Notes under the pieces: model-generated | The model's database searches: none | Seen by the model: only the letters and a program-made list of their open reading frames with translations | What the model was told of the DNA's origin: nothing | Assembly (NCBI GenBank): GCA_964643675.1 | Contig: CAZXTO010000001.1 | Coordinates: 1 to 37,439, forward strand | Source of the DNA: an uncultured Planctomycetales bacterium | GTDB taxonomy: Bacteria; Planctomycetota; UBA1135 | Direction: 5' to 3' | Length of the DNA stretch: 37,439 nt | Shown: positions 5,453-33,800 of the stretch, one piece after another | Position numbering within the stretch: position 1 is the first letter of the stretch | Layout: each line of letters begins with the position of its first letter | Position numbers and translations under genes: made by a program

Positions 5453-5464
5453 CGGGCCAACCGG

Positions 5465-7129: not shown

Positions 7130-7184
7130 GCCGCGAGGATGGATTCCTGCCCAAAAATCTCCCGGCAGGTCCGCCAGTCCCCCG

Positions 7185-10129: not shown

Positions 10130-10188
10130 GATGGGATCTTACCTCGAAATTCCGGCGCGTGGCGCCTGATTTTCAAGATAGACCTAGC

Positions 10189-12819: not shown

Positions 12820-13578
12820 CTACCCGCCCCCGTATCGCTTCCGGATTCCGCTGATCACGGATTCGAGCGATAGCCCGTCCAGCCCGAGACGCGGAAGATC
12901 CACCTCCCCTCCTCGAACCTGTTCGATGAAGCGGTCCACTGCGGCTCGAATCGAAGCCGGAGGGGGCGACCGGTACTCCGGGTCTGCGATCGCATACAAC
13001 CGGAACACATCGTTCTTGTGCTTCCTCAGGTCCCTGCTGTCCACGCGGCCTCCTTGTGCCTTGCGCGAATCCAAGTCGAGCCATGCCATCGCCTTGAGCG
13101 GGATCAGGTGTTCCGCTCGAACGACGGGGAGTCCTGCGACCAGGGTCCTCCCGGCGTGCGCCCACGCGTAGGAATCCCCGTCCATGAGGATGGCGGACAA
13201 GCTGGAGACCGGGTCGCTGACCGGAATCGGCGTGAGATGCCCCTGGATCGACGGCCCGAGGAGGTCGGGGACCCGAGAGAAGAGCTCCAACATGAACGGG
13301 TAGCCCGCTGAGCCAGGCTTCCGGAATCGGTGGAACCTCCGATCACGGCCGTCGGTTTCCCGGGTCGAATATCGCCCGCCTGAGATGAAGCGCCAGAACG
13401 CAGCCGCGAACTCGGCGTCGAAGGCTTCGAGGCAGAGCACGATGTCGATGTCCTTGGTGGCCCGGAAGGGCTGACCGACCTCGGCCATCAGGAGATCGCA
13501 TGCCGTGCCGCCGATGATCACGAAGCGGTCGACGAACTCCGCGAAGTGCTCGCGGAAGCCGTCCAGCCCCCTCACCAC
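12820..13578 (-). CDS. Pol-beta-superfamily nucleotidyltransferase, AbiEii/AbiGii-toxin-like
   Basis: 252-aa ORF (GTG start, overlapping the upstream stop within GTGGTGA). NTase signature is IIGGTACDLLMAEVGQPFRATKDIDIV (G[GS]-x9-13-DxD). The C-terminal helical part (IPLKAMAWLDL...RDLRKHKNDVFRL) resembles AbiEii family tails. Confidence 0.7.
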   Translation of the reverse strand: MVRGLDGFREHFAEFVDRFVIIGGTACDLLMAEVGQPFRATKDIDIVLCLEAFDAEFAAAFWRFISGGRYSTRETDGRDRRFHRFRKPGSAGYPFMLELFSRVPDLLGPSIQGHLTPIPVSDPVSSLSAILMDGDSYAWAHAGRTLVAGLPVVRAEHLIPLKAMAWLDLDSRKAQGGRVDSRDLRKHKNDVFRLYAIADPEYRSPPPASIRAAVDRFIEQVRGGEVDLPRLGLDGLSLESVISGIRKRYGGG

Positions 13579-14555: not shown

Positions 14556-14811
14556 GGGCTGGATACCCTGCTTCTGAACTTTACCATATCAAGAGTTATT
14601 GTGCATTTCAATGTAAGTCGATTCCAATGTTCGTGCCATTCCGGGCTCTCGCTCGAGAACTGGGCAGACACATTCGAATATTCCTATTCCCAGACATGGA
14701 CCCTGAACGCCTGGACCTCGGATGGGGCCTGGCGGGGCAAGAGCAACCGCCTTCATGCGAGCCCCGTCCTCGTGACGCCGCCATGAAGCGAAGCCGCAGA
14801 GGCCTCCTGCT

Positions 14812-17800
14812 TCAGCGGACCTGGACGATGGCGGGGCCAGTCGCCAGCATGGCAAGCACCTCGTCAAGGACCAGTTCGCCGCGGCCATTCCATCCGCGCA
14901 AGCGATACTCCCCTTCCGGGAAGGAACGGATCAGCCAAGAGTCCTCCTCCTCGGCCCGAACAGCCGACAGGTCCATCGGCGTCCCAACCGAGAATCCGGC
15001 TTCGACCTGGAGACGCTCGATTGCTAATCCCTCAGGAAGCCGCAGCTCAACCAGATCAACGCGTCGACGAAGAATGGCGCTCACGGATGTCTCGAAAGTC
15101 GTGACCAGGGGCCAGTAGCCGAACTTCTCGATGCGCAGGCCCCCTTCACCTGGCGGCCCGTGAATGCGTCCAACTCCGCCGCGATCCGTAATGGCTCGAA
15201 GCCCAGCATCTTGGTTCCAAAGCGTGACCCCTGCCACGGGGATGCCATCCAGACCCTCGCAATGAACCTCGCACTGGAGAGTCTGCATCCCAAGCATGAG
15301 ATCCCCGGCCATCGGGAGTTCGGCGACCGAATAGACTTCGACACCACCACCAGGGAGTTGAAAGAGCGCCTCCAATGGCAAGGCGGGCGAGCTGTCTATT
15401 CTGAGGACTCCCTCTGCATCAGCTGAAGCACCACCAGGGAACGATGCGCCATCACGAAGTCGGAAGGTCACAAAGGCGGATGGAAGGGCCTGCCCCGCCT
15501 GATCCACGAGCCGGACTTCGCGTTCGACTGTGTTGAACGCATCAACCTCATATTGCTCCTGACCGGACTCCACATCGGCTCCATAGATCCGCACCAGAGA
15601 ATCGGACAAACAGAATGCACCGACATAATCCTGGTCACTGGGAGGGCTAAGGGAAAATGTGTGATCGCCTTTGACGGGAGATGTCTCCAGCCACCCTTTG
15701 ACCGCATGGAAACCACGCAATGGATGTTGGGGTGCACCCATTAGCTTGCCCCAGACTGGAGGCATGCCCGATAGTTCAAAGTCAACATTCCGTACCCACT
15801 CTCCAGAGTGGACACCGACCTCTTGGATTTGATTCGGCTGGAACAGCAGATGTGAGCTGCTTGGTTTAAGAAACAACTTGTATGCTCCAGGAGAAATCCC
15901 AGAGAATTGGAATCTGCCTAGCTCGTCTGAAGTAACTTCACCGCCGTACCAGCCGTCGGAACGGTGTAGTTCGATCTGGATCCCTGACCAAGGAGTTGCA
16001 TTGTGATCTCGAATGGCGCCCTCTATCCCACCACCTTCGAGTTGGAGCAATCCAAGATCCAGCCCACCGCTCGGGACATCAAAAGGGCCGATGCAATACC
16101 CTCGAGGCGAGCCGTCAGCAACAACAAGTGCGTGACGCCCTACTGATATAGGGATCTCGGCACCACCTCCATGAATGGCAATCGGGTCGCTGCGATATCC
16201 CCGAGAATTCAATAGCCGCACCTCCCAAGGACCGTCTTCCGGCTCAGGAAGCTCGAAGCGCAATGTGTCAGTTAACACTTGAGGCAGGGTGAGTAAGCCA
16301 TTGTCGCCCTCACCTATCACAACATCCCAATCCCAACGCATCCCATCCTTGCTCACCAAAGAAACCGTGCACGGCCCAGTCGGAATCCAAGGGCTCCTAG
16401 CCCGCTGATCAATCCATGTCGCATATGAATTATCCCAGTTTGACCTTGGGTGAAACTCAACCTCGAACGACTCAAGGCCTACTGGGAGATTCTGATGCAG
16501 GTTAAGCCTGGAGAATGAACCCATTGGCGGCAGAACAACATCAACTACCTCTCCTGCGGTGGGGACCAGGACTGTCATCTCCGGCCCTCTCCAATAGTCA
16601 GACCACCATTGCAATAGACAGACCTCTCCAGGAACAAAGGCATCATCGGTGCTAACAAGTCCATTCTGATCAGATGTGTACATCCCGGGTACCCAGTCAT
16701 AACCATCCCTGGAGGCCATCACATCGATGCCGTGGAGCGGTACTCCACTGGGAGTCACAAACCTCATCTGAAAAGCGATGGCCGGATTCAACACAAAGTT
16801 AAGTTCGACATTATCACCAGTTCGCGGCCGCTGGATGAGGTGGTGGTCCACGGCGAAGCCATCTTTGAAGGCCACAGCCAAGATCGCAGGATGCTCAGCT
16901 GAAACATCCGTACAAACATAGGTGCCATCCTCCTTCACCTTCGTACTCCCCGCATCCTCCGTGCGCCCATTACCCATGTATAGGAAACCGACAAATCCAC
17001 CCGCAACAGGACTCTGTTCCCCATCAACTACCTTGCCGTACACAGAGAATCCTCGCGTCGCCATTAGGACAATGTGATCTCCATCACTTGCCTCATACTC
17101 CACCTCGAAATTTAACCCGTCAATATGCTCGCAAGCGACGGTCATTGGCATAGAGAGCGGCTGGCCAAGAAGGACTTCACCTGCAGCGTTCGTTTTCTCC
17201 TCCCAGAAGAAGAACTTCCGCTGTAATTTCTCCCTCCAGGAATACCCTAAGTATTTGGTATCCGCGACTGAATAGAAAACCCGAACGGCGATGCCCTCGA
17301 CCGGGCTCCTGTTTGCATCCTCCACTCGGACCCGCAACCCATCGGCACTGCTCAGCCTCCAAGTGACTTCCTCGCCCTGGAAGCTCAAATAACGAGCCGA
17401 CACTTCGTGCTTTTGGATGTCTGGCCATACTAAATACTCCATCCCACTGAAGACATCAGGACACTCAGCAACCCCATCGATAACAGGCACTGTCGAGTGC
17501 TCCTCAAGCCTGAGAAGGTCGTCCCCATTAAAGCCGATGTCTCCGTCCACGAATTCCTGAATCCTGGGCGAAACCTGTAGCAAGTGGAGCACTCCATCAA
17601 GTTCCCTCTCGTCTCCACTACCCATAAATCGCACAACCTGACGGGGACTGGGCTGCCCCCCGGTCCAAGACCTGGCTTCCTCATTTCTTGCGGGAGTTCC
17701 TGGAGCTTCACCGCCAGGGGTCACCTGTAGCGTTTGGTTTCTTCCGTCATGATCGGCGGAGATTGAGGACTGGCTAGAATCTCCGGTAATTGGGCGGGAA

Positions 17801-17907
17801 GCATCCGAGATAGCTGGATCGTACTCCTCGCTCCTATCGAGGAGCACGAGGGCAGTGATGACCCCGAAGCCAACAAATGCCAAGTACCAATGCTTCGAGA
17901 TTCTCAC
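14812..17907 (-). CDS. Large N-terminally membrane-anchored surface protein composed of multiple carboxypeptidase-regulatory-like/prealbumin-fold beta-sandwich repeats
   Basis: 1031-aa ORF with a GTG start. It has a single N-terminal TM/signal-anchor (WYLAFVGFGVITALVLL). At least five segments show the pattern 'V.V.D..g.Pv.G..V.l.....g....tD..G.f.f..l.pG.Y.l', for example VRVEDANRSPVEGIAVRVFY, GKVVDGEQSPVAGGFVGFLY...DGTYVCTDV, GAIRDHNATPWSGIQIELH...SDELGRFQFSGISPGAYKLFL, VRLVDQAGQALPSAFVTFRL...ADAEGVLRI and GLDGIPVAGVTLWNQDAGLRAITDRGGVGRI. Confidence 0.8.
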   Translation of the reverse strand: MRISKHWYLAFVGFGVITALVLLDRSEEYDPAISDASRPITGDSSQSSISADHDGRNQTLQVTPGGEAPGTPARNEEARSWTGGQPSPRQVVRFMGSGDERELDGVLHLLQVSPRIQEFVDGDIGFNGDDLLRLEEHSTVPVIDGVAECPDVFSGMEYLVWPDIQKHEVSARYLSFQGEEVTWRLSSADGLRVRVEDANRSPVEGIAVRVFYSVADTKYLGYSWREKLQRKFFFWEEKTNAAGEVLLGQPLSMPMTVACEHIDGLNFEVEYEASDGDHIVLMATRGFSVYGKVVDGEQSPVAGGFVGFLYMGNGRTEDAGSTKVKEDGTYVCTDVSAEHPAILAVAFKDGFAVDHHLIQRPRTGDNVELNFVLNPAIAFQMRFVTPSGVPLHGIDVMASRDGYDWVPGMYTSDQNGLVSTDDAFVPGEVCLLQWWSDYWRGPEMTVLVPTAGEVVDVVLPPMGSFSRLNLHQNLPVGLESFEVEFHPRSNWDNSYATWIDQRARSPWIPTGPCTVSLVSKDGMRWDWDVVIGEGDNGLLTLPQVLTDTLRFELPEPEDGPWEVRLLNSRGYRSDPIAIHGGGAEIPISVGRHALVVADGSPRGYCIGPFDVPSGGLDLGLLQLEGGGIEGAIRDHNATPWSGIQIELHRSDGWYGGEVTSDELGRFQFSGISPGAYKLFLKPSSSHLLFQPNQIQEVGVHSGEWVRNVDFELSGMPPVWGKLMGAPQHPLRGFHAVKGWLETSPVKGDHTFSLSPPSDQDYVGAFCLSDSLVRIYGADVESGQEQYEVDAFNTVEREVRLVDQAGQALPSAFVTFRLRDGASFPGGASADAEGVLRIDSSPALPLEALFQLPGGGVEVYSVAELPMAGDLMLGMQTLQCEVHCEGLDGIPVAGVTLWNQDAGLRAITDRGGVGRIHGPPGEGGLRIEKFGYWPLVTTFETSVSAILRRRVDLVELRLPEGLAIERLQVEAGFSVGTPMDLSAVRAEEEDSWLIRSFPEGEYRLRGWNGRGELVLDEVLAMLATGPAIVQVR

Positions 17908-18131
17908 CGTCTACCAGGGCCTTGCCGACTCCTCTCCTTCACTCCTCCGATGTGGCCCGTAACGGGGTCCGTTCCACCACCAGGATCTCCATTGGAGGGA
18001 GACGCAGCTCGGCCCTCGTGCTGCCCACCACCTGCACGCAATGGTTGGGAGCCCAGTAGGGCCAACCAACAAAGACAAAGGAGGGCGGCCTTAGCTACCT
18101 GGCTCCAATGGGACCGGTTGTTTCGCGTCAT
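17904..18131 (-). CDS. Small hypothetical exported/membrane protein (75 aa), possibly translationally coupled to the large surface protein
   Basis: ATG at 18129-18131 is preceded by GAGG 6 nt upstream. A hydrophobic segment (AKAALLCLCWLALLGS) is followed by a Gly/Pro-rich tail. The stop overlaps the GTG start of the downstream gene (GTGA). There are no recognisable motifs, so coding status is uncertain. Confidence 0.35.
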   Translation of the reverse strand: MTRNNRSHWSQVAKAALLCLCWLALLGSQPLRAGGGQHEGRAASPSNGDPGGGTDPVTGHIGGVKERSRQGPGRR

Positions 18132-18177
18132 CGCAGCCTCAGGTTCCTGTCACGCGGCAGCTCCCCAAGCGACTCCA

Positions 18178-18792
18178 TCATGCTGCCGAACCGAACTTCC
18201 ACCCGTAGGCAAAAAAGTCTACTCTCGCTAGGGTGCACGTCGGGTCAGCTTCCGCGGCAAGCCTAGACAATTCGACTGCGCGAGGAAGGTCCCCTCTCTT
18301 TTCCTCAAGTCCAGCCATATTTCGGAGTGCCCGAGATCTAATGGAGTGTGAGAGCCCCGGCCGGCCAATGAGTGCGGCTAATGCAGGTTCAGCAATTTGG
18401 AGGGATCCTACTCTCATTCCATTCGCCGCAAGAGTGATGAGCGCAAGAGGATCAAAAGCCCGAAGAGAGGCGGCAACCGTCGCCAAGGCCAAGGGGTCGT
18501 TCCAGTTGTCGGTTTCGGCCATCTGCTCTAGGCGGATCTCCATCTGGTGGCGGTCCTCGAGGTAGGAGACAAGGTTGCTGCCGAGGCTGTGGTATTCACG
18601 CCATGCGCTTCGGAGGCTGGCGAACAACCGTTGAGGGTCCTTGGGGATCAGCCTGGAGTCTGGAGCGTACTTGTTCCCGTCCTGGATCCGGAGTCCAGCG
18701 AGCACCGACGCCTTCAAGGTGAGCAGCCCGAGGTGCCGAGCGACCTCATCGGCGTAGGCGCCCGCAGCACGGAGGAGCAAGGCCTGGGTCAT
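18178..18792 (-). CDS. Hypothetical all-helical soluble protein with a TPR-like C-terminus; candidate partner (anti-sigma-like or adaptor) of the upstream sigma factor
   Basis: I take the ATG at 18790-18792 (MTQALLLRAAGAY...) as the start, which overlaps the sigma gene stop as ATGA. There is no TM segment. The C-terminus (RALRNMAGLEEKRGDLPRAVELSRLAAEADPT) is TPR-like. Confidence 0.6.
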   Translation of the reverse strand: MTQALLLRAAGAYADEVARHLGLLTLKASVLAGLRIQDGNKYAPDSRLIPKDPQRLFASLRSAWREYHSLGSNLVSYLEDRHQMEIRLEQMAETDNWNDPLALATVAASLRAFDPLALITLAANGMRVGSLQIAEPALAALIGRPGLSHSIRSRALRNMAGLEEKRGDLPRAVELSRLAAEADPTCTLARVDFFAYGWKFGSAA

Positions 18793-19424
18793 TCCTGCTC
18801 GTGGTCGGCCTGCTCTTGGACTGCCGACTCGGCCAGGAATTCGGGAGCTCGCCAACCCTTAGGCAGGTGAAGCTCATCGATTCCGCGGGTGAGTACCTGC
18901 CAGATCCTGAGCAGGCTGGCGCGGATCTCAGCCGGAAGGATGCCAGTGGCTCGAGCGACCTGTGCTGGGTTCCTCTTCTCGATCAAGTAGAGAAACAAGA
19001 TCGCGCGATCGGCGGTCGGCAGCTGGTTGAAGCGCCCCTGGAGTTCCGCGCTCGGCTCTCCGGAGGCGCCGTTCACGACGCCGAGCTGATCCTCAGGGTC
19101 AGCGAGGTCGCGCAAGATGCGCGATTCGATCCAGAGTCCGAACGCCTCATGAGTGTCATGCAATGCGTCTCGCTTGGCGGCCTTGGCGAACAAACGGGCA
19201 AGGAGGAATTCTTCCGGAAGAACGAGGAAGTGCCGAACGACAGCGACGCGGATCCCACGTTTGATCCAGGGCTCAACGCGCTCGAACAACTTGCCGAGGT
19301 GCGAGTAACGCTCCGTCTCGGGCAGGTTCTGGAAGGCTTGAAAGGCTCGCTTCGTGAGCAGCCACTCCCTGACCAAGGTGGGAGTGTTCGCCGGAGCAAT
19401 CCGGATGTGGTGGCTTCGATCCAT
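18789..19424 (-). CDS. Divergent ECF-type sigma-70 family RNA polymerase sigma factor
   Basis: I take the ATG at 19422-19424 (MDRSHHIRIAP...) as the start. The region 4 HTH is clear (LPTADRAILFLYLIEKRNPAQVARATGILPAEIRASLLRIWQVL). The region-2-like segment is weak (EEFLLARLFAKAAKRD...FGLWIESRILRDLAD). The longer ORF-track start at 19646 adds 74 non-descript residues. Confidence 0.7.
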   Translation of the reverse strand: MDRSHHIRIAPANTPTLVREWLLTKRAFQAFQNLPETERYSHLGKLFERVEPWIKRGIRVAVVRHFLVLPEEFLLARLFAKAAKRDALHDTHEAFGLWIESRILRDLADPEDQLGVVNGASGEPSAELQGRFNQLPTADRAILFLYLIEKRNPAQVARATGILPAEIRASLLRIWQVLTRGIDELHLPKGWRAPEFLAESAVQEQADHEQE

Positions 19425-19855
19425 GGGGGGCAGAGATCTGGCAATAAGAGGTCGCCCGAAGGGAGCGGGCTCGAACCTCGAAGAGAGGCTTCCTTCACTC
19501 TCCAATCTCGGAGAGCCTGCGGGGCCAAAAATTTGGCCCAAAATGCCCCATTCCCAGGTGGAAGACCTGCGCCGAGGATCTCGGCCTTCGCCGAGGATTC
19601 TCGAAACCTCGCCTTGAGGAGGGCGTAAGTCTGCCTGATAACCCATGCAGCGTCTGCCTGTTGCCGAACGGGCGGATGCGGGAAGGCGTCCCGGGGAGGG
19701 GCGCCGACCTCCCTTGCTAATCGGTAGGCCGACTGTGCGACTTTTTGGGGGGAGCGCAGTCGGCCGCTTTTCTACCCTCCGAGGGAGACCCGGCGTTGAG
19801 CCCCGGTAGGAACTTGGTTTCCTGCCGCGGGGCTCCCCGGGATCGTGGATGAGCG

Positions 19856-20112
19856 TGTGGATAACTAGTGGAAAGTGCTCCCGCGGGCCGAATTCGGAGG
19901 GCCTTTCTCAGGAGTCTCAGGGATTCCCCACAATTGTGGAGAACACCGATCCCTGGCCTCGAGAGTCGGCACAAATCCTGAAGAAAAAGGGACTCCCGGA
20001 GACCTGCGATTTCCACCCGATTGTGGAGAAGCTGGGGAAAGCGCTCCGAAGTGGTCTTTCAGACTTCGTATGAGTGGCCCTTTGAGGCAATTGTGGATAA
20101 GTCTGTGGAAGA
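19856..20112 (+). promoter_or_regulatory. Cluster of same-orientation DnaA-box-like 9-mers (candidate oriC-type or DnaA-titrating/regulatory element)
   Basis: TGTGGATAA occurs as a perfect consensus at 19856-19864 and 20092-20100. TGTGGAGAA (1 mismatch) occurs at 19935-19943 and 20022-20030. TGTGGAAGA (2 mismatches) occurs at 20104-20112. Weaker sites are CGTGGATGA (19844-19852) and TAGTGGAAA (19866-19874). Three boxes share the extended motif ATTGTGGA[G/T]AA. Confidence 0.5.
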
Positions 20113-20907
20113 CTCGCCGGCCGGGGCCCCGCCCGAGGGGCCGAAACCCAGCACGAGCACCGTCCTGGGGCAGGCCTCGGCGCAGTCCCCGCAGCGGCTG
20201 CAATCCGGGTCGGTCACGGCCGCGGCGCCGGCCTGGACGTGTTCCTCCATGACCGGGATGCCGAGCGGGCAGGCGCGGCTGCAGCGGCGACAGCCGGGGC
20301 GGCCGGCGGCCTCCCCCACCAGGATCCGGAAGCGGGACCAGCGGCCGAGCAGGGCGTGGACCGCCCCCACCGGGCACAAGGAGGCGCAGAAGGCCCTCCG
20401 GAAGGCCCATTCCAGGGCCAGGACCCCCGCCACCAGCAGCCACTCCAGGCCGGCGCCGGCCCCGGCCCCCCAAACGAGCCAGTTGATCGGCGACACCGAC
20501 TGGAACAGCGGGAAGCCGGCGGCGGCGCTGCCGGCCACGCAGGCGAGCGCCAAGCCGTATTTCCAGCTTCGTGGCAAGCTGCGCTCAGGAAGCCACTTGC
20601 GGAAGCGTTCGCGGAGGGGGTCTTGGAGTTCCAGGACCAGGCCCAGGGGGCACAGCCAGCCGCAGAAGACCCGGCCCAGGATCAGCGCCGGCAGGGCCAC
20701 GAGCAGGCCGCCGAGCAGCAGCTCCGGCTCGAGCCGGCGGCTGGCGGCGGCGGTCTCGAGCACCGCCAGGGGGTCGGCCAGGGTCAATCCCCACCAGTCG
20801 ACCGAGGGGAAGGCCCCCTGCACCCCCGGCAGCCAGCCGCGGCCAATGGCGATCAGGGCGGCGAAGAAGGCCGCGGCGCTGAGGCGGCGCGCGAGGCGGA
20901 GGCTCAT
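20059..20907 (-). CDS. napH: NapH, membrane-bound iron-sulfur quinol dehydrogenase subunit
   Basis: I take the ATG at 20905-20907 (MSLRLARRLSAAAFFAALIAIG) as the start, overlapping the napG stop as ATGA. It has four hydrophobic segments. The two CX3CP motifs are CGWLCP and CASLCP. The C-terminal ferredoxin cysteines are CRRCSRACP and CSRCGDCAEACP. The longer ORF-track version runs through napG in another frame. Confidence 0.9.
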   Translation of the reverse strand: MSLRLARRLSAAAFFAALIAIGRGWLPGVQGAFPSVDWWGLTLADPLAVLETAAASRRLEPELLLGGLLVALPALILGRVFCGWLCPLGLVLELQDPLRERFRKWLPERSLPRSWKYGLALACVAGSAAAGFPLFQSVSPINWLVWGAGAGAGLEWLLVAGVLALEWAFRRAFCASLCPVGAVHALLGRWSRFRILVGEAAGRPGCRRCSRACPLGIPVMEEHVQAGAAAVTDPDCSRCGDCAEACPRTVLVLGFGPSGGAPAGESSTDLSTIASKGHSYEV

Positions 20908-21542
20908 CGCGGCTCCGTCGGCTCCGCGGCCAGGTCCCGCCGCTCCCCGGCCGGCCGGGCCGCCTCGGGGATCATCCGGATCGCGCTGGGTTCGGTCGGG
21001 CAGGCCCAGTCGCACAGGCCGCAGCCGATGCAGGCCTCGGCCACGATCTCGACCCGGCCGAGGGGGTCGAAGCGGATCGCCTCGTCGGGCAGCGGGCAGG
21101 CGCGCCAGCAGACGCGGCAGATCTGGCGGTTCCAGGCCAGGCACTGCTCGAGGTCGAGCTCGGCCACGCCCATCCGGATCGCGCGGGTGCCCGCGACCGG
21201 GGCCAGCGCGCCGCTCGGGCAGGCGTCGATGCAGAGCAGCGAGTCCTCGCCCTTGCAGAGGTGGCAGGGCACGGCCCGGGCGTCCAGCCAGGGGGTTCCA
21301 GCGCTGGCGCCGGCGCCGATCCCGGCCAGGGCCAGGGTGTCGAAGGGGCAGGCCTGTACGCAACGGCCGCAGCGGATGCAGGCGGCCAGGAAGTCGGCCT
21401 CGGAACCGGAGACGCCCGGCGGCCTCAACCAGGCCGCCGGGCGCGCTTGGGTCCCGCGGAGCAGTCCGCCGCCGATCGCGGCGCCGACCAGCCAGCCGGC
21501 CGAGGCCAGCCACTGGCGGCGGGTGCTCCGCTCACCCTCCAT
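20904..21542 (-). CDS. napG: NapG, Tat-exported poly-ferredoxin subunit
   Basis: 212 aa with a Tat-like STRRQWL signal. It has four Fe-S cysteine groups (CIRCGRCVQACP, CHLCKG..CIDACP, CRVCWRACP, CIGCGLCDWACP). Confidence 0.9.
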   Translation of the reverse strand: MEGERSTRRQWLASAGWLVGAAIGGGLLRGTQARPAAWLRPPGVSGSEADFLAACIRCGRCVQACPFDTLALAGIGAGASAGTPWLDARAVPCHLCKGEDSLLCIDACPSGALAPVAGTRAIRMGVAELDLEQCLAWNRQICRVCWRACPLPDEAIRFDPLGRVEIVAEACIGCGLCDWACPTEPSAIRMIPEAARPAGERRDLAAEPTEPR

Positions 21543-21570
21543 CCGGGTCAGGGGTCGGGAAAGCTCGGGT

Positions 21571-21900
21571 TCAGTTGACGGTGTGACAGGTCCGGCACTT
21601 CACCTTGAGCTGAAGCTCCGGCATGCCGTCGTGCACGATCAGCGGCGCGTCGTTGTCGCCGTTCTCGTGGCAGCTCATGCAGGTCTCCTTCAGCCAGGAG
21701 TCGCGCCAGCTCGGTTCGTGGTCGTCGTCGGCGGGCATCGGCGGCGGGAAGGCCCCGCCGGCGAACTGCACCTCGAAGGCGGTCGGGTCGTTGCTCGCCG
21801 GCTGGACCGGCGCCCCGGCGCTTTGGGTGGATTCCTCCTTGGTGCAACCGCCGGCGAACAGGGCCGCCAGCAGCAGCGCGGGAAGCAGGTAGCGTTTCAT
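21571..21900 (-). CDS. napB: Small dihaem cytochrome c, NapB-like, predicted lipoprotein
   Basis: I take the ATG at 21898-21900 as the start. The product is 109 aa with signal plus lipobox (LLLAALFAGGC) and two CXXCH motifs (CMSCH, CRTCH). It sits immediately downstream of napA. It is only the tail of the long ORF 21571..22977. Confidence 0.7.
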   Translation of the reverse strand: MKRYLLPALLLAALFAGGCTKEESTQSAGAPVQPASNDPTAFEVQFAGGAFPPPMPADDDHEPSWRDSWLKETCMSCHENGDNDAPLIVHDGMPELQLKVKCRTCHTVN

Positions 21901-21914
21901 CGTTCGTTCCTCCT

Positions 21915-24224
21915 TCAGGCCTTGGCCAGCTGGACAGCGCAGATCTTGAACTCGGGCTGCTTCGAGCCCGGGTCGTAGGCGTCGATGGTCACGAGGTTGA
22001 CGAGGGCGTCTTCCCAGTGCATCGGGATGAAGCAGGTGCCAGGCTGCGGGTGCGGCACCACGCGGGTCTCGACCGTGAGCGAGCCGCGCCGGGAAGTGAC
22101 CTTCACCGGGTCGCCGCTCTTCACGCCGAGCTTGGCCGCGTCGTCCGGGTGGATCTCGCAGTAGCACTTCTTGTAGGTGCGCTCGAGCTCCTTGCAGCGC
22201 ATGGTCATGGTGCCGGTGTGCCAGTGCTCGACCACGCGGCCCGTCGACAGGCTGTAGGGGTACTCGTCGTCGCAGGGCTCGGCCGGACCCTTGATCGGGC
22301 GCAGCCAGACGATCGCCTTCTGGTCGGCGGCGGCGTAGAACTTGGTCTCGCCGTCCTGGCGGCTGGAGTCGCCGTCGAGCAGCGGGTCGTCGCCCTTGAC
22401 GAAGCGGCGCGCGGTGCCCGGGTGGGTCTCGTCGGGGCACGGCCAGCGCAGGCCGCGCTCCTTCTTGAGCCGCTCGCGGGTCATGCCGGCGAAGTCGTAG
22501 GGCGTGCCCTTGCCGGCCAGCAGGATCTCCTCCCACATGTCGTCGGTGCTGTTGAACTTGCCGCCGATGTAGCCCTTCGGCACGACGCCGCGCTCCTCCA
22601 GGCCCTTGGCCAGGTCGAGCAGGATGTCGAAGTCCGAGCGGGCCTCGCCGGGGGCGTCGGTCACCTTCGGGTGGAGCTGGTAGCGGCGCTCGGACATGCC
22701 GAAGACGCCGGTCTTCTCGGCCCACATCGCCGCCGGCAGCACGACGTCGGCCAGCTTGGTGGTCTCGGTGTCGAAGATGTCCGCCACCACGATGAAGGGC
22801 TTGTTCGGCCGCGGCTTGCCCATCGCGTCGCGGTAGGCGCCGGCGTTCGGCAGCGACTGCGCGGGGTTGGTGGTGGTGACGAACATGGCCTGGATCTCGT
22901 CGCGGCCCAGCGCCTTGAACATCTCGATGGTGTTGAGGCCAGGCTTGTCCTGGATCGTGCCGGGGGCGCAGCCCCACAGCTTCTCGATCACCTCGCGGTG
23001 CTCGGCCTTCTTGACCACCCGGCCGTAGGGCAGGATGTGCGACAGGCTGCCGGTGTCGCGCACGCCGCCGCAGGCGTTGGGCTGGCCGGTCAGCGAGAAG
23101 GGCGTCGACCCCGGCTTGCCGATCAGGCCGGTGATCAGGTGCAGGTTGTGCATCAGGTTGTTGGCCCAGACGCCGGTGATGCGCTGGTTCAGGCCCATGG
23201 TCCAGAAGGACATGCTCGGGCCCTGGGCGAACATGCGCGCCGCCTTACGGATGTCGGCCGCCGGCACGCCGCAGATGGCCTCGGCCTTGTCGGGCGTGAA
23301 GTCCTCGAGGAACTTCTTGTAGCCCTCGAAGTCGGTGCCGCCGTCGGCGCCCTTGAACTGCACGTTGGCGTCGATGAACTCGGGGTCGTAGAGCCCCTCG
23401 GCGATGATCACCTGCGCCATGGCGTGGAATACCGCCAGGTCGTAGCCGGGCTTCGGCTGCAGGTAGAGGTCGGACATGCCCTGCAGCGGCGACTTGCGCG
23501 GGTCGAGCGTGATCACCTTCACCGCCGGCCGGTCGGCCTTGGTGGCCAGGATCCGGTCGAGGATGATCGGGTGGCACTCGGCCGTGTTCGACCCGACCAG
23601 GAAGAAGACCTCGGCGTCGTCGATGTCGTCGTAGCACCCCATCGGCTCGTCCTTGCCGTAGGTGCTGACGTAGCCGCCCACCGCGCTGGCCATGCAGAGC
23701 CGCGGGTTGCCCTCGACGTTGTTGGTGCCGATGCCGCCCTTGAACAGCCGGTTGGCGAGGTAGCTCTCCTCGGTCATGCACTGGCCGGAGCCGTAGTAGG
23801 CGACCGAGTTGGGGCCGTTGGCCTTGATGGTGTCGGCGAACTTGTCGCACACCAGGGTCATGGCCTCCTCCCAGCTCGCGTCGACCAGCTCGCCGCCCTT
23901 GCGGATCTGCGGCGTGGTCAGGCGGTCGGGGTGGTTGACGACCTTGGGCAGGAACAGGGACTTCATGCACACCAGTCCCTTGGTGCTCGGGTGCTCGACG
24001 TCGCCGCGCAAGGAGACGAGCTTGCCGCCCTTCACCCCGAGCACGACGCCGCAGCCGGTGCCGCAATAACGACAGACCGACTTCACCCACTGGTCGGGTT
24101 CGACCTTGGCGGGCGCGGCGGCCGTGGTGGCGGCCCCCTCCTTCTTGGTGCACGCGGCGCCGGTCGCGCCGACCACGGCGGCGACTGCGCTGGTGCGTAT
24201 GAAATCACGACGGCTGGCTTTCAT
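21915..24224 (-). CDS. napA: Periplasmic nitrate reductase catalytic subunit NapA (Mo-bisMGD, 4Fe-4S)
   Basis: 769 aa with the Tat signal SRRDFIR and the N-terminal 4Fe-4S motif CRYCGTGCG. Molybdopterin oxidoreductase architecture runs throughout. AGGAGA lies 9-14 nt upstream of the ATG. Confidence 0.95.
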   Translation of the reverse strand: MKASRRDFIRTSAVAAVVGATGAACTKKEGAATTAAAPAKVEPDQWVKSVCRYCGTGCGVVLGVKGGKLVSLRGDVEHPSTKGLVCMKSLFLPKVVNHPDRLTTPQIRKGGELVDASWEEAMTLVCDKFADTIKANGPNSVAYYGSGQCMTEESYLANRLFKGGIGTNNVEGNPRLCMASAVGGYVSTYGKDEPMGCYDDIDDAEVFFLVGSNTAECHPIILDRILATKADRPAVKVITLDPRKSPLQGMSDLYLQPKPGYDLAVFHAMAQVIIAEGLYDPEFIDANVQFKGADGGTDFEGYKKFLEDFTPDKAEAICGVPAADIRKAARMFAQGPSMSFWTMGLNQRITGVWANNLMHNLHLITGLIGKPGSTPFSLTGQPNACGGVRDTGSLSHILPYGRVVKKAEHREVIEKLWGCAPGTIQDKPGLNTIEMFKALGRDEIQAMFVTTTNPAQSLPNAGAYRDAMGKPRPNKPFIVVADIFDTETTKLADVVLPAAMWAEKTGVFGMSERRYQLHPKVTDAPGEARSDFDILLDLAKGLEERGVVPKGYIGGKFNSTDDMWEEILLAGKGTPYDFAGMTRERLKKERGLRWPCPDETHPGTARRFVKGDDPLLDGDSSRQDGETKFYAAADQKAIVWLRPIKGPAEPCDDEYPYSLSTGRVVEHWHTGTMTMRCKELERTYKKCYCEIHPDDAAKLGVKSGDPVKVTSRRGSLTVETRVVPHPQPGTCFIPMHWEDALVNLVTIDAYDPGSKQPEFKICAVQLAKA

Positions 24225-24483
24225 CGTTGGTTGTCTCCTGAGGATCGAACTCGTCCTCCGCGTTCACGTAGACCGGCCACACGGCGAGCACGCCGTCGGT
24301 GGCCTGCACGCTCCCCTCGAGCAAGTCGCGCGCGGCGCGCAGGCTCGGCGCCTCGACCACCATGCCGACCTTGTCCAGGTCCTCGGCGGGCACGACCTCG
24401 ACCTCCGGCAGGGCGGCGAGGCTGCGGGCCACCGCCTCCCGGTCCGCCGGGCGGACGGTGGCGTAGGCGCCGATGATGGGCAT
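24205..24483 (-). CDS. napD: NapD, NapA Tat-signal-binding chaperone
   Basis: ATG at 24481-24483. The product is 92 aa (MPIIGAYATVRPADREAVARSLAALPEVEVV...GVLAVWPVYVN), matching the ferredoxin-like NapD pattern. It overlaps the napA start by 20 nt. It is only the tail of the spurious 696-aa ORF 24205..26295. Confidence 0.8.
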   Translation of the reverse strand: MPIIGAYATVRPADREAVARSLAALPEVEVVPAEDLDKVGMVVEAPSLRAARDLLEGSVQATDGVLAVWPVYVNAEDEFDPQETTNDESQPS

Positions 24484-24521
24484 GTCGCGGGGAGGCTCGG
24501 GGGGAGCGTGTCGGGGGGTGG

Positions 24522-26225
24522 TTACTTGTAGTGGTCGAAGCCCTCGGCGGCGGACTTCTCGGCGTCGAACCACTCGTGCTCCGGCCGCGCGAGGATCTCC
24601 TCGATCAGGGCCAGGACCTTCTCGGCGCCGGCGGCGTTGCCGTGCGCGCTGGCCTCCTCGCAGGCGTGGCGGGCCTGCGGCAGCAGCTCCATGTAGAAGC
24701 GCTCGGCGACCTCGTACATGCCGTGCCAGTGGGCGTAGTCCGGCGCCATCATCGAGGCGCCGTGGCGGCCGCGGCGGCCCTCGTGGTGCCAGAGGTAGAA
24801 CCACGTCCACTCGATCTCGTCGTCGAACTGCGGCTTGGTGATCACGCCCTCGGCCCACAGCGCCTTCATGATCTTCAGCCCCGGCTTGGCGAACTTCTCG
24901 TTGTAGAGCACGATGTAGTCGTCGTACTGCTCGTAGAAGCTGTCGACGTAGCCCGGCGCGTGGCAGTTGAGGCACACCTGGGTCATGCGCTCGCGCTTGG
25001 CGGCGGCGCTGTCGAAGCTGCCCTCGGCCTTGGCGGCCTGGATCAGCTTGCGGCGCTTCAGCGGGTCGGTCTCCTTGACCACCGAGCCGTTGATGGTGTC
25101 CATCGCCGCCGACACCGGCGGGCGGTTGGTCCAGGAGATGCGCTCGCCCGGGTCGTGGGTGATGGTGCCGTCGTTGCGGGCGTTGCCCGACATGTGGCAG
25201 GTGGCGCAGGTCGGGGCGGCGTCGTAGTCGACGCCGAGCACCCACTCCTCGCCGTCGAGGGCGAGCTTGTCCTTCAGGTCGCGGTAGGCGATGCCGTGCT
25301 TGGACTCCTCGTAGACCTCCTTCTGCGGGTGGTCCGGGCCGAGGTGGCACTTGCCGCAGTTCTCGGGCTGGCGCGCGCGGCGCGAGCTGAAGTCGTGGCG
25401 GCTGTGGCAGGCGGTGCAGGAGCCGGCCGAGCCGTCGAGGTTGAAGCGGCCGATGCCGGTGTTCGGCCAGTCGCCGCTGATCAGCACCGGCTTGCCGTTC
25501 TGGTCGCGCTTGATCTTGGCCGCGACCTCGAGGTTGGTCGGCATGCCGTCCTCGTCGGGCGCGAGCTCGTCGACGGTGATGCGGCTGCCGTCGGTGCCCT
25601 CGAGCGCGATCTTCGAGCCGTGGCACTGCTTGCAGCCCGAGTTGGCGCTGGCGAAGCCGTTGGCCATGTCGATGCCCGGCCGGCCCGGCGTCGGGCTGTG
25701 CGGGTTGAACTCGCCGCGGTAGCCCTCGGTGACCTCGGCCAGGCGGTTGTCGAGCGAGTGGAGGATCTCGCCGGCGCGAGAGTGGTGGCTGGCGGCGAAT
25801 TCCTCCTGCTCGGTCTCGTGGCACTCGGCGCAATCGAGCGGCGTGACGATGGTGGCGATCACCACCCCCTCGTGCTTCCAGGCGTCGGGCTCGCCCTCCT
25901 CGGCCTGGTGACAATCCAGGCAGGCCACGTCCATGGCCGCGTGGGCGGAGTCGCGCCAGTGGCTGACGATGCCCGGGCTCTCCTTGGTGTGGCACTCGAC
26001 GCAACGCTTCGACTCCTCGGGCACCGTGATCTCCGGCTCCTGGGCCGAGGCGACGACGGGCCCGGCCGCGGGCGGCGACGGGCCGGCTGCGAGCTCGGCG
26101 GTCGGCGCGGCGGCCGAGTCCGAGGGCTCCGGCGGAGCGACCGGGTCGTCGCACTGCGCACACAGGAGGAGGCAGGCGCTGGCCGCAAGGAGGGTGATGG
26201 CGGATGCGGGCGAGGGCTGGTTCAT
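24522..26225 (-). CDS. hao: Octahaem c-type cytochrome of the hydroxylamine oxidoreductase (HAO) family
   Basis: There are eight CXXCH motifs (CVECH, CLDCH, CAECH, CKQCH, CTACH, CGKCH, CATCH, CLNCH). An HAO-family signature block is present (WPNTGIGRFNLDGSAGSCTACHSRHDFS...PENCGKCHLGPDHPQKEVYEESKHG; WHHEGRRGRHGASMMAPDYAHWHG). The likely start is the ATG at 26223-26225 (MNQPSPASAITLLAASAC...); an alternative upstream start is at 26279. Confidence 0.9.
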   Translation of the reverse strand: MNQPSPASAITLLAASACLLLCAQCDDPVAPPEPSDSAAAPTAELAAGPSPPAAGPVVASAQEPEITVPEESKRCVECHTKESPGIVSHWRDSAHAAMDVACLDCHQAEEGEPDAWKHEGVVIATIVTPLDCAECHETEQEEFAASHHSRAGEILHSLDNRLAEVTEGYRGEFNPHSPTPGRPGIDMANGFASANSGCKQCHGSKIALEGTDGSRITVDELAPDEDGMPTNLEVAAKIKRDQNGKPVLISGDWPNTGIGRFNLDGSAGSCTACHSRHDFSSRRARQPENCGKCHLGPDHPQKEVYEESKHGIAYRDLKDKLALDGEEWVLGVDYDAAPTCATCHMSGNARNDGTITHDPGERISWTNRPPVSAAMDTINGSVVKETDPLKRRKLIQAAKAEGSFDSAAAKRERMTQVCLNCHAPGYVDSFYEQYDDYIVLYNEKFAKPGLKIMKALWAEGVITKPQFDDEIEWTWFYLWHHEGRRGRHGASMMAPDYAHWHGMYEVAERFYMELLPQARHACEEASAHGNAAGAEKVLALIEEILARPEHEWFDAEKSAAEGFDHYK

Positions 26226-26379
26226 GAGAGCGCGGCGCCTCGTTCCCCCGGACGCGGACTGCCCGCGGAGCCGGTTCAAGGCAACCGCCCAGCACTTAAA
26301 CCCGGGCCCCGCCCAGGCAAGCCCTAATCCGACACGAAAACAGTGCTATTAAGCCTCGGGGACTGCACTCTCTCCTTCT

Positions 26380-26400
26380 GCCGCCCTGACTTAGGGCGGC
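26380..26400 (-). terminator. Stem-loop downstream of the sulfatase gene (possible terminator separating it from the hao-nap operon)
   Basis: An 8-bp inverted repeat gccgccct / agggcggc with a 5-nt loop, 25 nt from the sulfatase stop at 26425. No U-tract follows. Confidence 0.4.
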
Positions 26401-26424
26401 TGTCGCGCCTAGGTCCGCACCGAC

Positions 26425-30626: not shown

Positions 30627-30894
30627 GGGAGCCGGGAGGATGGACCGTTCAGGGTGGGGGCGCCCTGCGTCGGACCCTTGATCCTACCCCAGGATCGCGG
30701 ATCTCGTCGGGAGGAGGAGGGAATGGAGGCCTCCTGGGCGGTCCTGAGGCAGAATTCAGAGGCCGGACGCCCCGCCGGTACCCCCACTCCCGGCCGCAGC
30801 GCCGGCGGAGGAGCTCGGCGAGTTCCGGTGAACCAGTCATGGTCTGCCCTCCTCCGCGCTGGCATCTGCCCCCAGGCCGCGCCTCTCGGCCGCG

Positions 30895-33800
30895 GTGGAG
30901 CCGGCCGACCCTCGCCGGAACGGAGCGAGTCAGGCCGTGAGTCACGAGCTGGAGCGCTCGACGGACCCCTACCGGGCCACCTTCGAAGCCGCTCCCGTCG
31001 GGATCTGCCATGTCGGCGCGGGCGGTCGGTTCCTGCGCGTCAACCCGGCCTTCTGCCAGATCGTCGGCCGCCCCGAGGAGGAGGTCCTCCAGCTCGGGGT
31101 GCCCGACATCACCTTCCCCGGCGACCCCGACACCAACTCGCCGGTCATCCAGGAGCTGATGAGCGGCGAGCGTGATCGGGTGTCGCTGCGCAAGCGCTTG
31201 GTGCGCCCGGACGGCGAACCCCGGTGGGTCGAGCTCACCGCCTCCTCGGTGCGGTCCGAGGCCGGTGAGCCGAAGTTCCTGATCGCGGTCCTCGACGACA
31301 TCCAGGCCCAGGTCGAGGCCGAGGAGGTCCAGGCGGCGGCGGCGGCGGCCTTGCGTCAGCGGGAGCGCGAGCTGGACCTAGCCCAGCAGGTCGCCAACAT
31401 GGGGAGCTGGGTCCTCGACCTGGAGCAGGACTCGCTGAGCTGGTCGGATCAGACCTACCGGCTGTTCGGCGTCGCCCCCGGCCAGCCCCTGAGCTACGCC
31501 GACTTCCTCGACCGGGTCCACCCCGAGGACCGGAGCATGGTCGACGAGGCCTGGAGCAAGGCCCTGCGCGGCGAGCGCTACGACATCGAGCATCGGGTCG
31601 TCGTCGACGGCGAGACGCTCTGGGTCCACGAGCGCGCCGAGCTCGAGACCGACGCCGACGGCCAGCCGGTCCGCGGCATCGGCACCGTGCTCGACATCAC
31701 CGAGCGCAAGCAAGCGGGGCTGGCCTTGGAGAGCAGCGAGGCCAGGCTGCGCTCGATCGGCGAGGCGATCCCCGACCTGATCTTCGTGCTCGACGAGGAT
31801 GGTCGGTACGTCGAGATCCTGACCGCCGACGAGCAGCTCCTGGTCCGGGGGGCGGAGGAGCTGCGCGGCAGGAACCTGACCGAGGTGTTCGAGCCGCCGC
31901 AGGCCGAGCGCTTCCTGAGCCTGATCCGCCGCACGGTCGAGTCCGGCGAGAGCCAGGTCCTCGAGTACACCATCGAGGTCCCCGCCGGCAGGATGGACTT
32001 CGAGGGGCGGACCTCCCCGCTGCGCGGCGAGATCGACGGCAAGCGGGCGGTGGTGATGGTGGCGCGGGACATCAGCGAGCGCAAGCGCTCCGAGGAGCAG
32101 TACCGCTCCATCGTCGAGACCTCGATCGACGGCTTCTGGATCGTCGATCGACGAGGCCAGATCATCGACGTCAACCCGGCCTACGCCGAGATGATCGGCT
32201 ACTCGGAGGCGGAGCTGCTGAAGATGGGCGTGCCGGACATCGAGGCGGTCGAGTCGGACGACGAGGTCGCCGACCGCATCCGCCGGATCGAGCGCGACGG
32301 CTACGACCGCTTCGAGACCCGCCACCAGCACAAGGACGGCCACCTGGTCGACGTCGAGGTCAGCGTGCAGTTCTCGGACATCCGCGGCGGCTGCTTCCTG
32401 GTGTTCCTGCGCGACGCCAGCAACCGCAAGCGGATCGAGGCCGAGCTGAAGCAGCACCAGGAGAACCTCCAGGAGCTGGTGGAGGAGCGCACCGAGGGGC
32501 TGGAGCGGATCAACCTCGCCCTGTCATCGAGCGAGCGGGAGTTCCGGCAGCTGCTCGAGAACCTGGAGGCCGGCGTGGTGGTGCACGCGCCGGACACGAG
32601 CATCCAGCTCTTCAACCGCCGCGCCACCGAGATCCTGGGGCTGAGCCCCGACGAGATGATCGGCAAGAAGGCGGTCGACCCCACCTGGTGCTTCCAGCGC
32701 GAGGACGGCGAGCGGATGCCGCTGGAGGAGTACCCGGTCAACCTGGTCCTGAGCCGCCGCGAGGTCCTGCGCGGCCAGATCGTGGGCGTTCGCCACCCCG
32801 GCGACCGCCCGGTGACCTGGGTCTACGTGAACGCCTTCCCCGAGTTCAGCGAGCACGGCGAGCTCCGGCGCGTCGCGGTGACCTTCATCGACATCACCGC
32901 GCGCAAGAACTCGGAGATCGAGCACGGCAGGGACGAGGAGCGGCTGACCTCGCTGCTCTACCTGGCGGAGCAGGAGTCGGCCGGGGCCGACGACCTGGAG
33001 CGGATCGCGGTCGAGGAGGTGCTCAAGCTCACCGGCAGCGAGATCGGCTACCTGCACTACTTCGACCAGGATGGCCAGTTCATCCGCCTGAACTGCTGGT
33101 CCCAGCAGGCGCTCCGTTATTGCACCGCGCCCCAGGACATGCACTACCCCCTGGAACAGGCCGGAGTCTGGGCCGACAGCGTGCGCACCGGCGAGCCGGC
33201 GGTCCACAACGACTTCGGCGAGGCCATCGGCAACGGCAACATGCCGGAGGGGCACGTCGAGGTCCGGCGGCACATGAGCGTGCCGATCCTCGACGGCAAC
33301 CGGGCGGTCGGCGTGCTCGGGGTCGGCAACAAGGAGGAGCCCTACGACCAGAGCGACATCCGGCAGCTGCAGCTGTTCCTGAACAGCATGTGGCCGCAGG
33401 TGCGCAAGTGGGAATTCGAGGACGCGCTGCGCCGCTCCGAGGACAAGTACCGCCGGCTGGTCACCGAGATCAACGACGGCTTCTTCGTGACCGACGAGGA
33501 GGGCCGGCTCAGCTTCCTGAACGCCGAGATGGCGCGCATCCTGGGCGGGACGGTCGAGGGCCTGGGCGGGGTGCTGCTGTTCGACCGGCTCCGCTTCGGC
33601 GGCGACCACGGTGACCAGGCCGCGATCCTCGCCCAGCTGAGCCGCGGGGAGACTCCCGATGAACTCGAGGCGGTGGTGCGCAACGGCAGTGACCATCCCA
33701 CGCAGGTCTCGTTGAAGTCCGTGCCGGTGATGGAGGACGGCCGGATGACCGGTCTGCGCGGCGTCGTGCGCGACATCACCCAGCGCAAGCGCCAGGAGGT

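Follow-up and report, generated by a model that had tools for sequence, protein, structure and literature searches.

The locus considered here lies on the minus strand of a 37-kb stretch of DNA (the window) from a probable Planctomycetota bacterium, at positions 20059-26225, and consists of six closely packed genes in the order hao, napD, napA, a gene for a small dihaem protein, napG and napH. The phylum was assigned from the names carried by the nearest Hao and NapA homologues. The window contains about 70% G+C and lists of its open reading frames (ORFs) are therefore rich in antisense artefacts, but the minus-strand reading of this region is still unambiguous. The six genes, with their order and coordinates, are as given in an initial annotation of the DNA, and the matches in Pfam, NCBIfam and the Protein Data Bank (PDB) agree with it. 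On balance, we regard the locus as a periplasmic nitrate- and nitrite-reducing operon with a nitrite-reducing Hao that is supplied most likely by NapGH, a reading that we hold to be fairly probable.

The first gene, hao (24522-26225), encodes 567 amino acids from its ATG, an octahaem cytochrome c of the hydroxylamine oxidoreductase (HAO) family that appears to be of the reductive, tyrosine-less type. An alternative in-frame TTG start at 26279 would lengthen Hao by 18 amino acids. A C-rich spacer of 38 nt (24484-24521) is followed by napD (24205-24483), for a NapA chaperone of 92 amino acids (PF03927, 2.2e-09, with 37.7 bits where 28 are required), and, with an overlap of 20 nt, by napA (21915-24224), for a molybdopterin nitrate reductase of 769 amino acids exported by twin-arginine translocation (Tat; motif RRDFIR). 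A gap of 14 nt separates napA from the gene for a dihaem c-type lipoprotein (21571-21900; 109 amino acids, with CMSCH and CRTCH), and another of 28 nt leads to napG (20904-21542), the product of which is a Tat-exported (STRRQWL) periplasmic poly-[4Fe-4S] ferredoxin of 212 amino acids. The start of napH (20059-20907) lies over the stop of napG in a 4-nt overlap; its product is a membrane quinol dehydrogenase subunit of 282 amino acids that carries CX3CP motifs as well as two for [4Fe-4S] clusters. An eight-CXXCH HAO protein ending 38 nt upstream of napD, with overlaps or gaps of at most 28 nt at the remaining junctions, is also what the initial annotation had described.

The intergenic region 5' of hao (26226-26424, minus strand) measures 199 nt and is presumed, from the size of the gap only, to be the promoter region of the operon. 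A scan of it for the sigma-70 consensus gave no match, and a GC hairpin (gccgccct-aagtc-agggcggc, 26380-26400) lies just past the stop of the sulfatase gene upstream of hao. In the hao-napD spacer, consensus scans revealed no promoter-like or terminator-like motif and RNA folding revealed no hairpin with a U-tract (fold z-score -1.9). In relatives, the gap between the called hao and napD genes is 2-53 nt. The tight packing, the absence of such motifs and the short gap in all relatives suggest that hao and the nap genes are co-transcribed. The tight linkage proposed earlier is further borne out by the recurrence of hao-napD-napA, which is found both in a relative with 89% identity and in several metagenome-assembled genomes (MAGs) of Planctomycetales, Pirellulaceae and Chloroflexota.

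The eight CXXCH motifs of Hao (C75, C102, C132, C198, C270, C290, C340 and C418) are invariant in 20 homologues, and the protein matches the Pfam family Multi-haem_cyto (PF13447) with 1.4e-20 and 74 bits against a cut-off of 21.9. Its solved relatives rank in the order IhOCC, the reductive anammox HAO Kustc0458, Nitrosomonas HAO (NeHAO), hydrazine dehydrogenase and KsHOX, with 1e-41 for IhOCC (4qo5), 1e-23 for Kustc0458 (6h5l) and 1.6e-16 for NeHAO; further HAO-family structures matched are 4fas, 6hif and 4n4j. A search with the family profile lifts the IhOCC match to 1.6e-54, and a comparison of the family with the HAOs of ammonia-oxidizing bacteria (AOB) by hhalign gives a probability of 99.9%. 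Among solved structures, the two reductive enzymes IhOCC and Kustc0458 thus stand nearer to Hao in sequence than the oxidative HAOs do.

Residues were mapped in an L-INS-i alignment of 41 sequences, in which the window Hao is set beside eight AOB HAOs and beside relatives both near and remote. A full-length Nitrosomonas-type HAO, recovered from a metagenome contig (L086), has tyrosine as mature residue 467 in NPGGWTY467TEGWGP. The catalytic haem-4 motif is kept, C198-H202 aligning with C229-H233 of NeHAO, and the distal pair Asp267/His268 corresponds to Asp298/His299; neither this motif nor the Asp-His pair varies within the Hao family. The column of the cross-linking Tyr467 of NeHAO, in contrast, holds His499 in the window protein, and that of Trp465 holds Tyr497. 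HMMER alignments chained through KsHOX (…YNQTYGNG…), Kustc0458 and IhOCC give the same cross-link register. Another register, with Tyr467 opposite Val506, came from a forced global hhalign alignment of the family with AOB HAOs; it is of low confidence near the tyrosine site, and the L-INS-i and chained PDB alignments were preferred.

The P460 cross-linking tyrosine is thus absent from Hao, with His499 and Trp500 at that site. Reductive HAOs have a histidine at the key site (PMC12758564). For epsilon-Hao, a tryptophan at the tyrosine position and a conserved methionine eight residues upstream are described in PMC8940962, which cites Haase 2017. The window protein carries this epsilon-Hao hallmark: its M492 lies exactly eight residues before W500, and neither residue varies in the family. 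Because the P460 tyrosine is absent, and because tyrosine-less HAOs act as reductases in vitro where tested (PMC8042395), the residue comparison supports the view that Hao is a tyrosine-less member of the HAO family of presumably reductive type, as first proposed.

It is very improbable that Hao acts instead as an oxidative hydroxylamine or hydrazine dehydrogenase, in the style of nitrifiers or anammox bacteria. Public annotations of its relatives do read 'hydroxylamine dehydrogenase/oxidoreductase', and the invariant Tyr497 stands only two to three residues ahead of the cross-link position. This tyrosine, however, aligns with Trp465 of NeHAO and with a tryptophan of IhOCC, which has no P460 haem (PMC9250108), whereas the position of the cross-link tyrosine of NeHAO and KsHOX is taken by His499 (Trp500 in Haase's register). 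The segment is predicted to be helical rather than a Gly-rich loop as in NeHAO, in a model with a predicted local distance difference test (pLDDT) score of 54. Furthermore, the window contains no amo, hzs or haoB genes, and the genomic context is one of nitrate reduction.

A further difference from NeHAO concerns its active-site residue Tyr334, which is replaced by Arg368 (codon at about 25122-25124, minus strand). This arginine is invariant in the close family and occurs in 14 of the 33 non-AOB sequences aligned. One could speculate that it favours binding of the nitrite anion.

The family to which Hao belongs is large. It comprises about 7,900 clusters at 90% identity (E <= 1e-5), and its close relatives account for at least 583 matching stretches in a one-genome-per-species collection. 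At 50% identity the close family is reduced to one representative among 1,821 clusters of the HAO superfamily, and the nearest of these clusters include Desulfobacterota MAGs. Members are found in Planctomycetota, Gemmatimonadota, Acidobacteriota, Chloroflexota, Krumholzibacteriota and other phyla. Their gene neighbourhoods were read by targeted tblastn, a greedy clustering of ORFs having been dropped on account of the antisense ORFs of high-GC DNA. In 80 species loci (L005-L084) the usual arrangement is Rieske - cytochrome b - Hao, often followed by nap genes.

In these relatives, Hao begins with a conserved transmembrane anchor (M.L..K..II..LG..FL.SL..VQ.ME) that is absent from the window Hao. 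The latter has a hydrophobic segment, then the conserved sequence QCDDPV and a Pro/Ala-rich linker of about 40 amino acids, which would suit a signal peptide or a lipid tether; an N-terminus of this type is shared only with the 89%-identical relative (L001). Of the 80 loci, 70 extend far enough upstream to be informative: the anchor and an upstream Rieske/cytochrome b are both present in 64 and both missing in 6, with no discordant case. The window is accordingly one of a minority of cases with a Hao uncoupled from its usual membrane partner, Rieske/cytochrome b and anchor having been lost. Within this minority, it falls in a small group of Planctomycetales with a nap operon, including NapGH, directly after hao. 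No Rieske or cytochrome b gene was detected in the window by tblastn, that is, over about 20 kb downstream of napH and about 11 kb upstream of hao, and none on the examined parts of the contigs of the 89%-identical relative, which also has a sulfatase gene upstream of hao.

Other candidate redox partners are likewise missing from the window. Six-frame analysis of the 37 kb gave no convincing haem c motif beyond those of Hao and the dihaem protein. Among the remaining large ORFs, no NrfA, NirS/K, NapC/NrfH or Hcp was identified by Pfam. A tetrahaem ORF is not present anywhere in the window, so that a quinol dehydrogenase partner of the NapC/NrfH type is lacking there, and neither are nor or nos genes. 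The absence of NapC/NrfH-type, NrfA, NirS/K and haoB genes had been correctly recognized from the start. Because the Rieske/cytochrome b genes and the Hao anchor have been lost, NapGH is the only quinol dehydrogenase in the locus.

A comparison of loci indicates that the system is modular, since syntenic or otherwise related loci differ in their content of Rieske/cytochrome b, NapGH and Hao. Window-type nap genes follow hao in the 89%-identical relative (L001-4) and in L005, L017, L044 and L072, with napD first, then a NapA that is 65-95% identical to that of the window, then the dihaem gene and napGH where the contig reaches. In L169 (Planctomycetota) and L172 (Chloroflexota) the complete series Rieske-cytb-hao-napD-A-dihaem-G-H is found, while L168 has Rieske-cytb-hao-napD-A-dihaem without napGH and L167 has napD-A-dihaem-G-H without Rieske-cytb-hao. 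The last two are syntenic and of related Planctomycetales type, flanked by OPT/VWA genes and by acyl-CoA dehydrogenase/LpoB/DUF1425 genes, and in the MAG of L167 an orphan hao of the signal-peptide type is located on another contig (L006). L170 and L171 contain nap genes only, without hao, and in many relatives Rieske-cytb-hao has no nap gene nearby. Rieske/cytochrome b and NapGH thus behave as alternative or additive quinol-oxidizing cassettes, while the NapDA-dihaem core that they surround is constant and Hao is optional. These swaps suggest that both quinol modules serve the same periplasmic reductases as alternatives.

The same neighbourhoods bear on the idea that Hao is mainly a multihaem electron conduit to NapA, replacing NapC or NapM, rather than an enzyme converting nitrogen oxides. 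Such a role could be imagined for a locus without NapC and NapM, especially as the relatives place Hao between Rieske/cytochrome b and nap, in the position of a cytochrome c1-like acceptor. We consider it improbable, however: napDA-dihaem-GH operons exist without hao (L167, L170 and L171), many Rieske-cytb-hao relatives have no nap gene nearby, and a conduit does not agree well with a catalytic haem-4 motif and an Asp-His pair that are invariant in the family.

A second type of cluster was encountered in about 33 loci (for example, L009:8219-14540, L010, L012 and L031) from Gemmatimonadota, Acidobacteriota, Planctomycetota and other phyla. It has the order Rieske - cytochrome b - transmembrane-anchored Hao - NapA-like protein - tetrahaem lipoprotein. 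The NapA-like protein has about 795 amino acids and is about 40% identical to the window NapA, with no napD between it and hao, and the tetrahaem lipoprotein consists of two NapB-like modules (APPxIPH…CxxCH…CRQCHV, twice).

Concerning the nap genes themselves, NapA contains the Pfam domains Fe4S4, Molybdopterin and Molydop_binding and a TAT signal. Its best PDB match is NapA of Desulfovibrio desulfuricans (2jio/2nap), with an E-value of 9e-243 over the full length, as compared to about 1e-158 for NapAB-type entries, and by this comparison it belongs to the short, monomeric class of the D. desulfuricans enzyme. The dihaem protein has a near-canonical lipobox (AGGC, with LSAC or LSGC in orthologues), and H61, H78, H90 and H106 are invariant in the alignment. 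Besides the two CXXCH motifs there are two further invariant histidines, and therefore enough ligands for two bis-His haems. In the NapA-centred loci a small gene (93-115 amino acids) always stands directly after napA, with or without hao or napGH, except in L171, where a gene for 217 amino acids takes its place; where the sequence was checked (L001, L017 and L072), this small gene is an orthologue of the dihaem gene. Since it adjoins napA irrespective of hao and napGH, the dihaem protein is to be seen as a partner of NapA, and it is probably a NapB-like electron donor to it. It can also be linked to the first module of the tandem NapB-like tetrahaem proteins by hhalign (probability 96%, E 2e-9). 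These tandem lipoproteins follow the second type of NapA in related loci, and one of them gives a sub-threshold match to PF03892.

Taken together, these elements allow a mechanism to be proposed. NapH in the membrane and NapG, a Tat-exported Fe-S protein, would oxidize menaquinol, and the electrons would be passed, most likely via the small dihaem lipoprotein, to the Tat-exported and NapD-chaperoned NapA, which would reduce nitrate to nitrite. Hao, presumably exported by the Sec pathway, would then take the nitrite produced by NapA and most probably reduce it to ammonium, possibly with release of hydroxylamine or nitric oxide (NO); we infer both nitrite as its substrate and the product. Its electrons would most likely come from the same NapGH (plus dihaem) module as those of NapA. 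This supply is proposed because Rieske/cytochrome b and the anchor are gone in this lineage. The step from NapGH to Hao, which rests on that loss and on the swapping of cassettes, remains tentative and has somewhat less than even chances. Still more doubtful is the wider idea that NapGH is a shared quinol dehydrogenase feeding both NapA and the de-anchored Hao, via NapG and/or the dihaem protein, and that Rieske/cytochrome b and NapGH are interchangeable inputs of a widespread Hao-Nap supermodule. If true, the six genes would constitute a self-contained nitrate-to-ammonium respiratory module without NapC/NrfH, NapM or a bc-type partner, and the supermodule, in Planctomycetota, Gemmatimonadota, Acidobacteriota, Chloroflexota and other phyla, could explain much of the NrfA-independent nitrite reduction in the environment.

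Several points weigh against the operon as read here. The best NCBIfam match of NapA is to NapA, but its 650 bits are below the equivalog cut-off of 904, as is to be expected for the short D. desulfuricans class. NapG (best match NapG, 6e-47, with multiple Fer4 domains in Pfam) and NapH (NapH/MauN 8.5e-41 and NapH 1e-40, with Fer4_5 in Pfam) are also below the respective cut-offs. The dihaem protein does not match Pfam NapB (PF03892), nor, with the single sequence or with a profile, any PDB entry, including the NapAB entries that matched NapA. Of the 'dihaem napB-like gene' in the initial annotation, the two CXXCH motifs and the position beside napA consequently stand, whereas the relation to NapB depends on an indirect hhalign link; from this link and the motif pattern, 'NapB-like' seems a reasonable functional label, unconfirmed as a family assignment. 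The AlphaFold2 model of Hao, built from a 20-sequence alignment, is too poor for a reading of the active site (pLDDT 54). Long C-terminal helices, through which HAO-family proteins assemble as homotrimers, are predicted in it with high confidence, and Foldseek orders its relatives as IhOCC > Kustc0458 > NeHAO, with template modelling scores of about 0.25 that allow no residue-level use.

The electron supply of Hao is a second point of this kind. We know of no demonstration that NapG or a NapB-like cytochrome passes electrons to an HAO, and the genome could encode a Rieske/cytochrome b, an NrfH-type or another donor outside the visible 37 kb. Hao might then be fed by a quinol dehydrogenase located elsewhere (a relocated Rieske/cytochrome b, alternative complex III, an NrfH-type protein or soluble cytochromes), and its linkage to nap would reflect co-regulation only. 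This is a serious possibility, although not a probable one. It gains from the dedicated Rieske/cytochrome b beside hao in 64 of the 70 relatives and from the existence of unlinked layouts, as in the MAG with an orphan hao (L006) apart from napDA-dihaem-GH (L167), and only 37 kb of the genome are visible. Nevertheless, the loss of the transmembrane anchor tracks that of Rieske/cytochrome b perfectly, which suggests that a mode of docking was abandoned rather than that genes were moved, and neither the window nor the examined parts of the contigs of the 89%-identical relative contain Rieske/cytochrome b.

A third point concerns the product. Kustc0458, the second-closest solved relative, turns nitrite into NO and not into ammonium (PMC8042395), and D. 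desulfuricans of the genus Deferribacter, with a NapMADGH-Hao cluster, stops at nitrite, which accumulates, so that such a cluster is no guarantee of ammonification (PMC6896113). Together with Arg368 in the place of Tyr334 of NeHAO, which makes the distal pocket unlike that of characterized enzymes, these cases raise the question whether Hao forms NO from nitrite, or detoxifies NO or hydroxylamine, and in this way protects or extends respiration by Nap without ammonifying. Such a role seems rather unlikely. According to PMC8042395, which cites Haase 2017, the reduction of nitrite and hydroxylamine has been shown in vitro for four epsilon-Hao enzymes, and cultured NrfA-less nitrate ammonifiers that possess nap-hao clusters produce ammonium (PMC5317091, PMC6896113); moreover, no nor or nos genes are present in the window. 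For Nautilia, a release of hydroxylamine appears to take place (PMC3701875). An ammonifying Hao beside Nap therefore remains the reading that we favour.

The remaining genes of the window encode a sulfatase, a LamG/Ig protein, PAS-rich histidine kinases, FG-GAP proteins, a fused 2-oxoglutarate dehydrogenase, an AbiEii toxin and a MarR-family protein, and Pfam scans indicated no nitrogen-cycle function among them. Directly downstream of napH there is an island of lower G+C content (14800-20000; 54-62%, against about 70% elsewhere), which holds a gene for a CarboxypepD_reg/Big_1 protein of 1031 amino acids (14812-17907, minus strand). Since the 89%-identical relative has CarboxypepD_reg genes similarly downstream of napH, this arrangement shows at least partial conservation and does not stem from assembly noise. 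An ORF for 285 amino acids (18789-19646, minus strand), situated between napH and the low-GC gene, has no Pfam match; on visual inspection its C-terminal part looks like a sigma-70 region-4 helix-turn-helix (…NPAQVARATGILPAEIRASLLRIW…), and it could be a local regulator. At 30832-36737 on the plus strand lies a hybrid sensor kinase of 1586 amino acids with about seven PAS stretches, GAF, HisKA, HATPase and a receiver, followed by an overlapping receiver-histidine kinase (35538-36737, plus strand). The pair is probably unrelated to the regulation of nap-hao, because it is not beside the operon in the 89%-identical relative.

At the other end of the window, a protein of 1253 amino acids (25-3786, minus strand) combines, on a single chain, E1 domains of 2-oxoglutarate dehydrogenase with a 2-oxoacid acyltransferase (E2 catalytic) domain, an architecture that we take to be the actinobacterial KGD type. 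Three consecutive genes encoding proteins with FG-GAP repeats, of about 470, 577 and 679 amino acids lie at 3776-9224 (minus strand). The last one may overlap the gene of a DUF4143 AAA ATPase (8972-10138), and gene boundaries there are uncertain. A gene for an AbiEii-type nucleotidyltransferase toxin stands beside a MarR-family helix-turn-helix gene (12820-14588, minus strand), and the two probably form a type IV toxin-antitoxin pair.

The initial annotation had not recognized the arrangement, in a high-GC organism, as a described one. Its novelty cannot be maintained, since nap-hao linkage is both common and published, which is largely what that annotation had itself named as counting against it: neighbourhoods with hao directly upstream of napD are frequent in public MAGs of Planctomycetota and Chloroflexota, and nap-hao clusters have been reported for Caldithrix abyssi, with several epsilon-proteobacteria and Denitrovibrio cited there as earlier cases (PMC5317091), and for Deferribacter as the 'nap-hao gene cluster' NapMADGH+Hao (PMC6896113). 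In the literature searched, on the other hand, we found no description of a wide distribution of Rieske-cytb-Hao(-Nap) outside anammox bacteria and thermophiles, of the strict coupling between the N-terminal anchor and Rieske/cytochrome b, or of the minority form with a de-anchored Hao, a mini dihaem lipoprotein and NapGH only. NrfA-independent nitrite reduction by tyrosine-less HAO homologues is recognized as a branch of the nitrogen cycle, although one that is poorly quantified. The label 'hydroxylamine dehydrogenase', routinely given to this common Hao family, suggests nitrification, whereas the context indicates nitrate and nitrite reduction.

Among the known systems, C. abyssi, which ammonifies nitrate (PMC5317091), combines like the window a D. 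desulfuricans-like Nap, NapGH and a tyrosine-less octahaem Hao in one cluster, without NrfA and NapC. Its epsilon-Hao adjoins a nap cluster with Rieske/cytochrome b genes (Cabys_2564-2556; PMC5317091), and this composition, compared by its published description, is that of the majority form of the window's Hao family. The window differs by the lack of Rieske/cytochrome b, by a 109-amino-acid dihaem lipoprotein in place of the tetrahaem NapM and by hao being first rather than last in the cluster. Deferribacter autotrophicus and Deferribacter desulfuricans, for which NrfA-independent nitrite reduction has been proposed (PMC6896113), also have NapA, NapD, NapG, NapH and Hao clustered, and no quinol dehydrogenase other than NapGH is obvious there. 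Their clusters add NapM and a small membrane protein, to which Hcp and a decahaem cytochrome are joined in D. autotrophicus, none of which is found in the window; gene order and phylum differ as well.

The epsilon-Hao proteins of Nautilia and Campylobacter are likewise octahaem HAO homologues without the cross-linking tyrosine, and the window protein shares their reported hallmark with M492...W500. In the reverse hydroxylamine:ubiquinone redox module (reverse-HURM) of Nautilia, the proposed partner is the NapC/NrfH-type tetrahaem CycB and hao is not beside nap (PMC3701875), whereas the window has no such cytochrome. IhOCC of Ignicoccus hospitalis (4qo5) aligns with Hao into the C-terminal helices, resembles it in a long insertion between haems 4 and 5 and has no P460 haem (PMC9250108); however, it is archaeal, the HMMER alignment falls into four pieces, Foldseek gives 24% identity and the haem 4-5 insertion of the window protein is longer. 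Tyrosine-less HAOs are also represented by Kustc0458/0457 (6h5l) and Kuste4574 (PMC8042395, PMC12485887). Kuste4574 is the HAO-like subunit of the anammox Rieske/cytochrome b complex R/b-3 (PMC12485887) and as such reminiscent of the majority form of the family, but not of the window, which has no Rieske/cytochrome b. Kustc0458 pairs with a dihaem cytochrome and provides NO for hydrazine synthesis inside the anammoxosome, whereas the dihaem protein of the window travels with napA and not with hao.

Finally, NapA of D. desulfuricans ATCC 27774 is of the same monomeric class as that of the window, as judged from the full-length match (E 9e-243). Its cluster has no napB but contains the tetrahaem NapM and NapC (PMC5317091), where the window has the dihaem lipoprotein and neither NapC nor NapM. 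The window is therefore a variant of the published nap-hao theme, and its arrangement overturns nothing. In comparison with these systems it offers a clean minimal case, Hao with NapDA-dihaem-GH and no other cytochrome, which could be used to test whether NapGH drives an HAO-type nitrite reductase.

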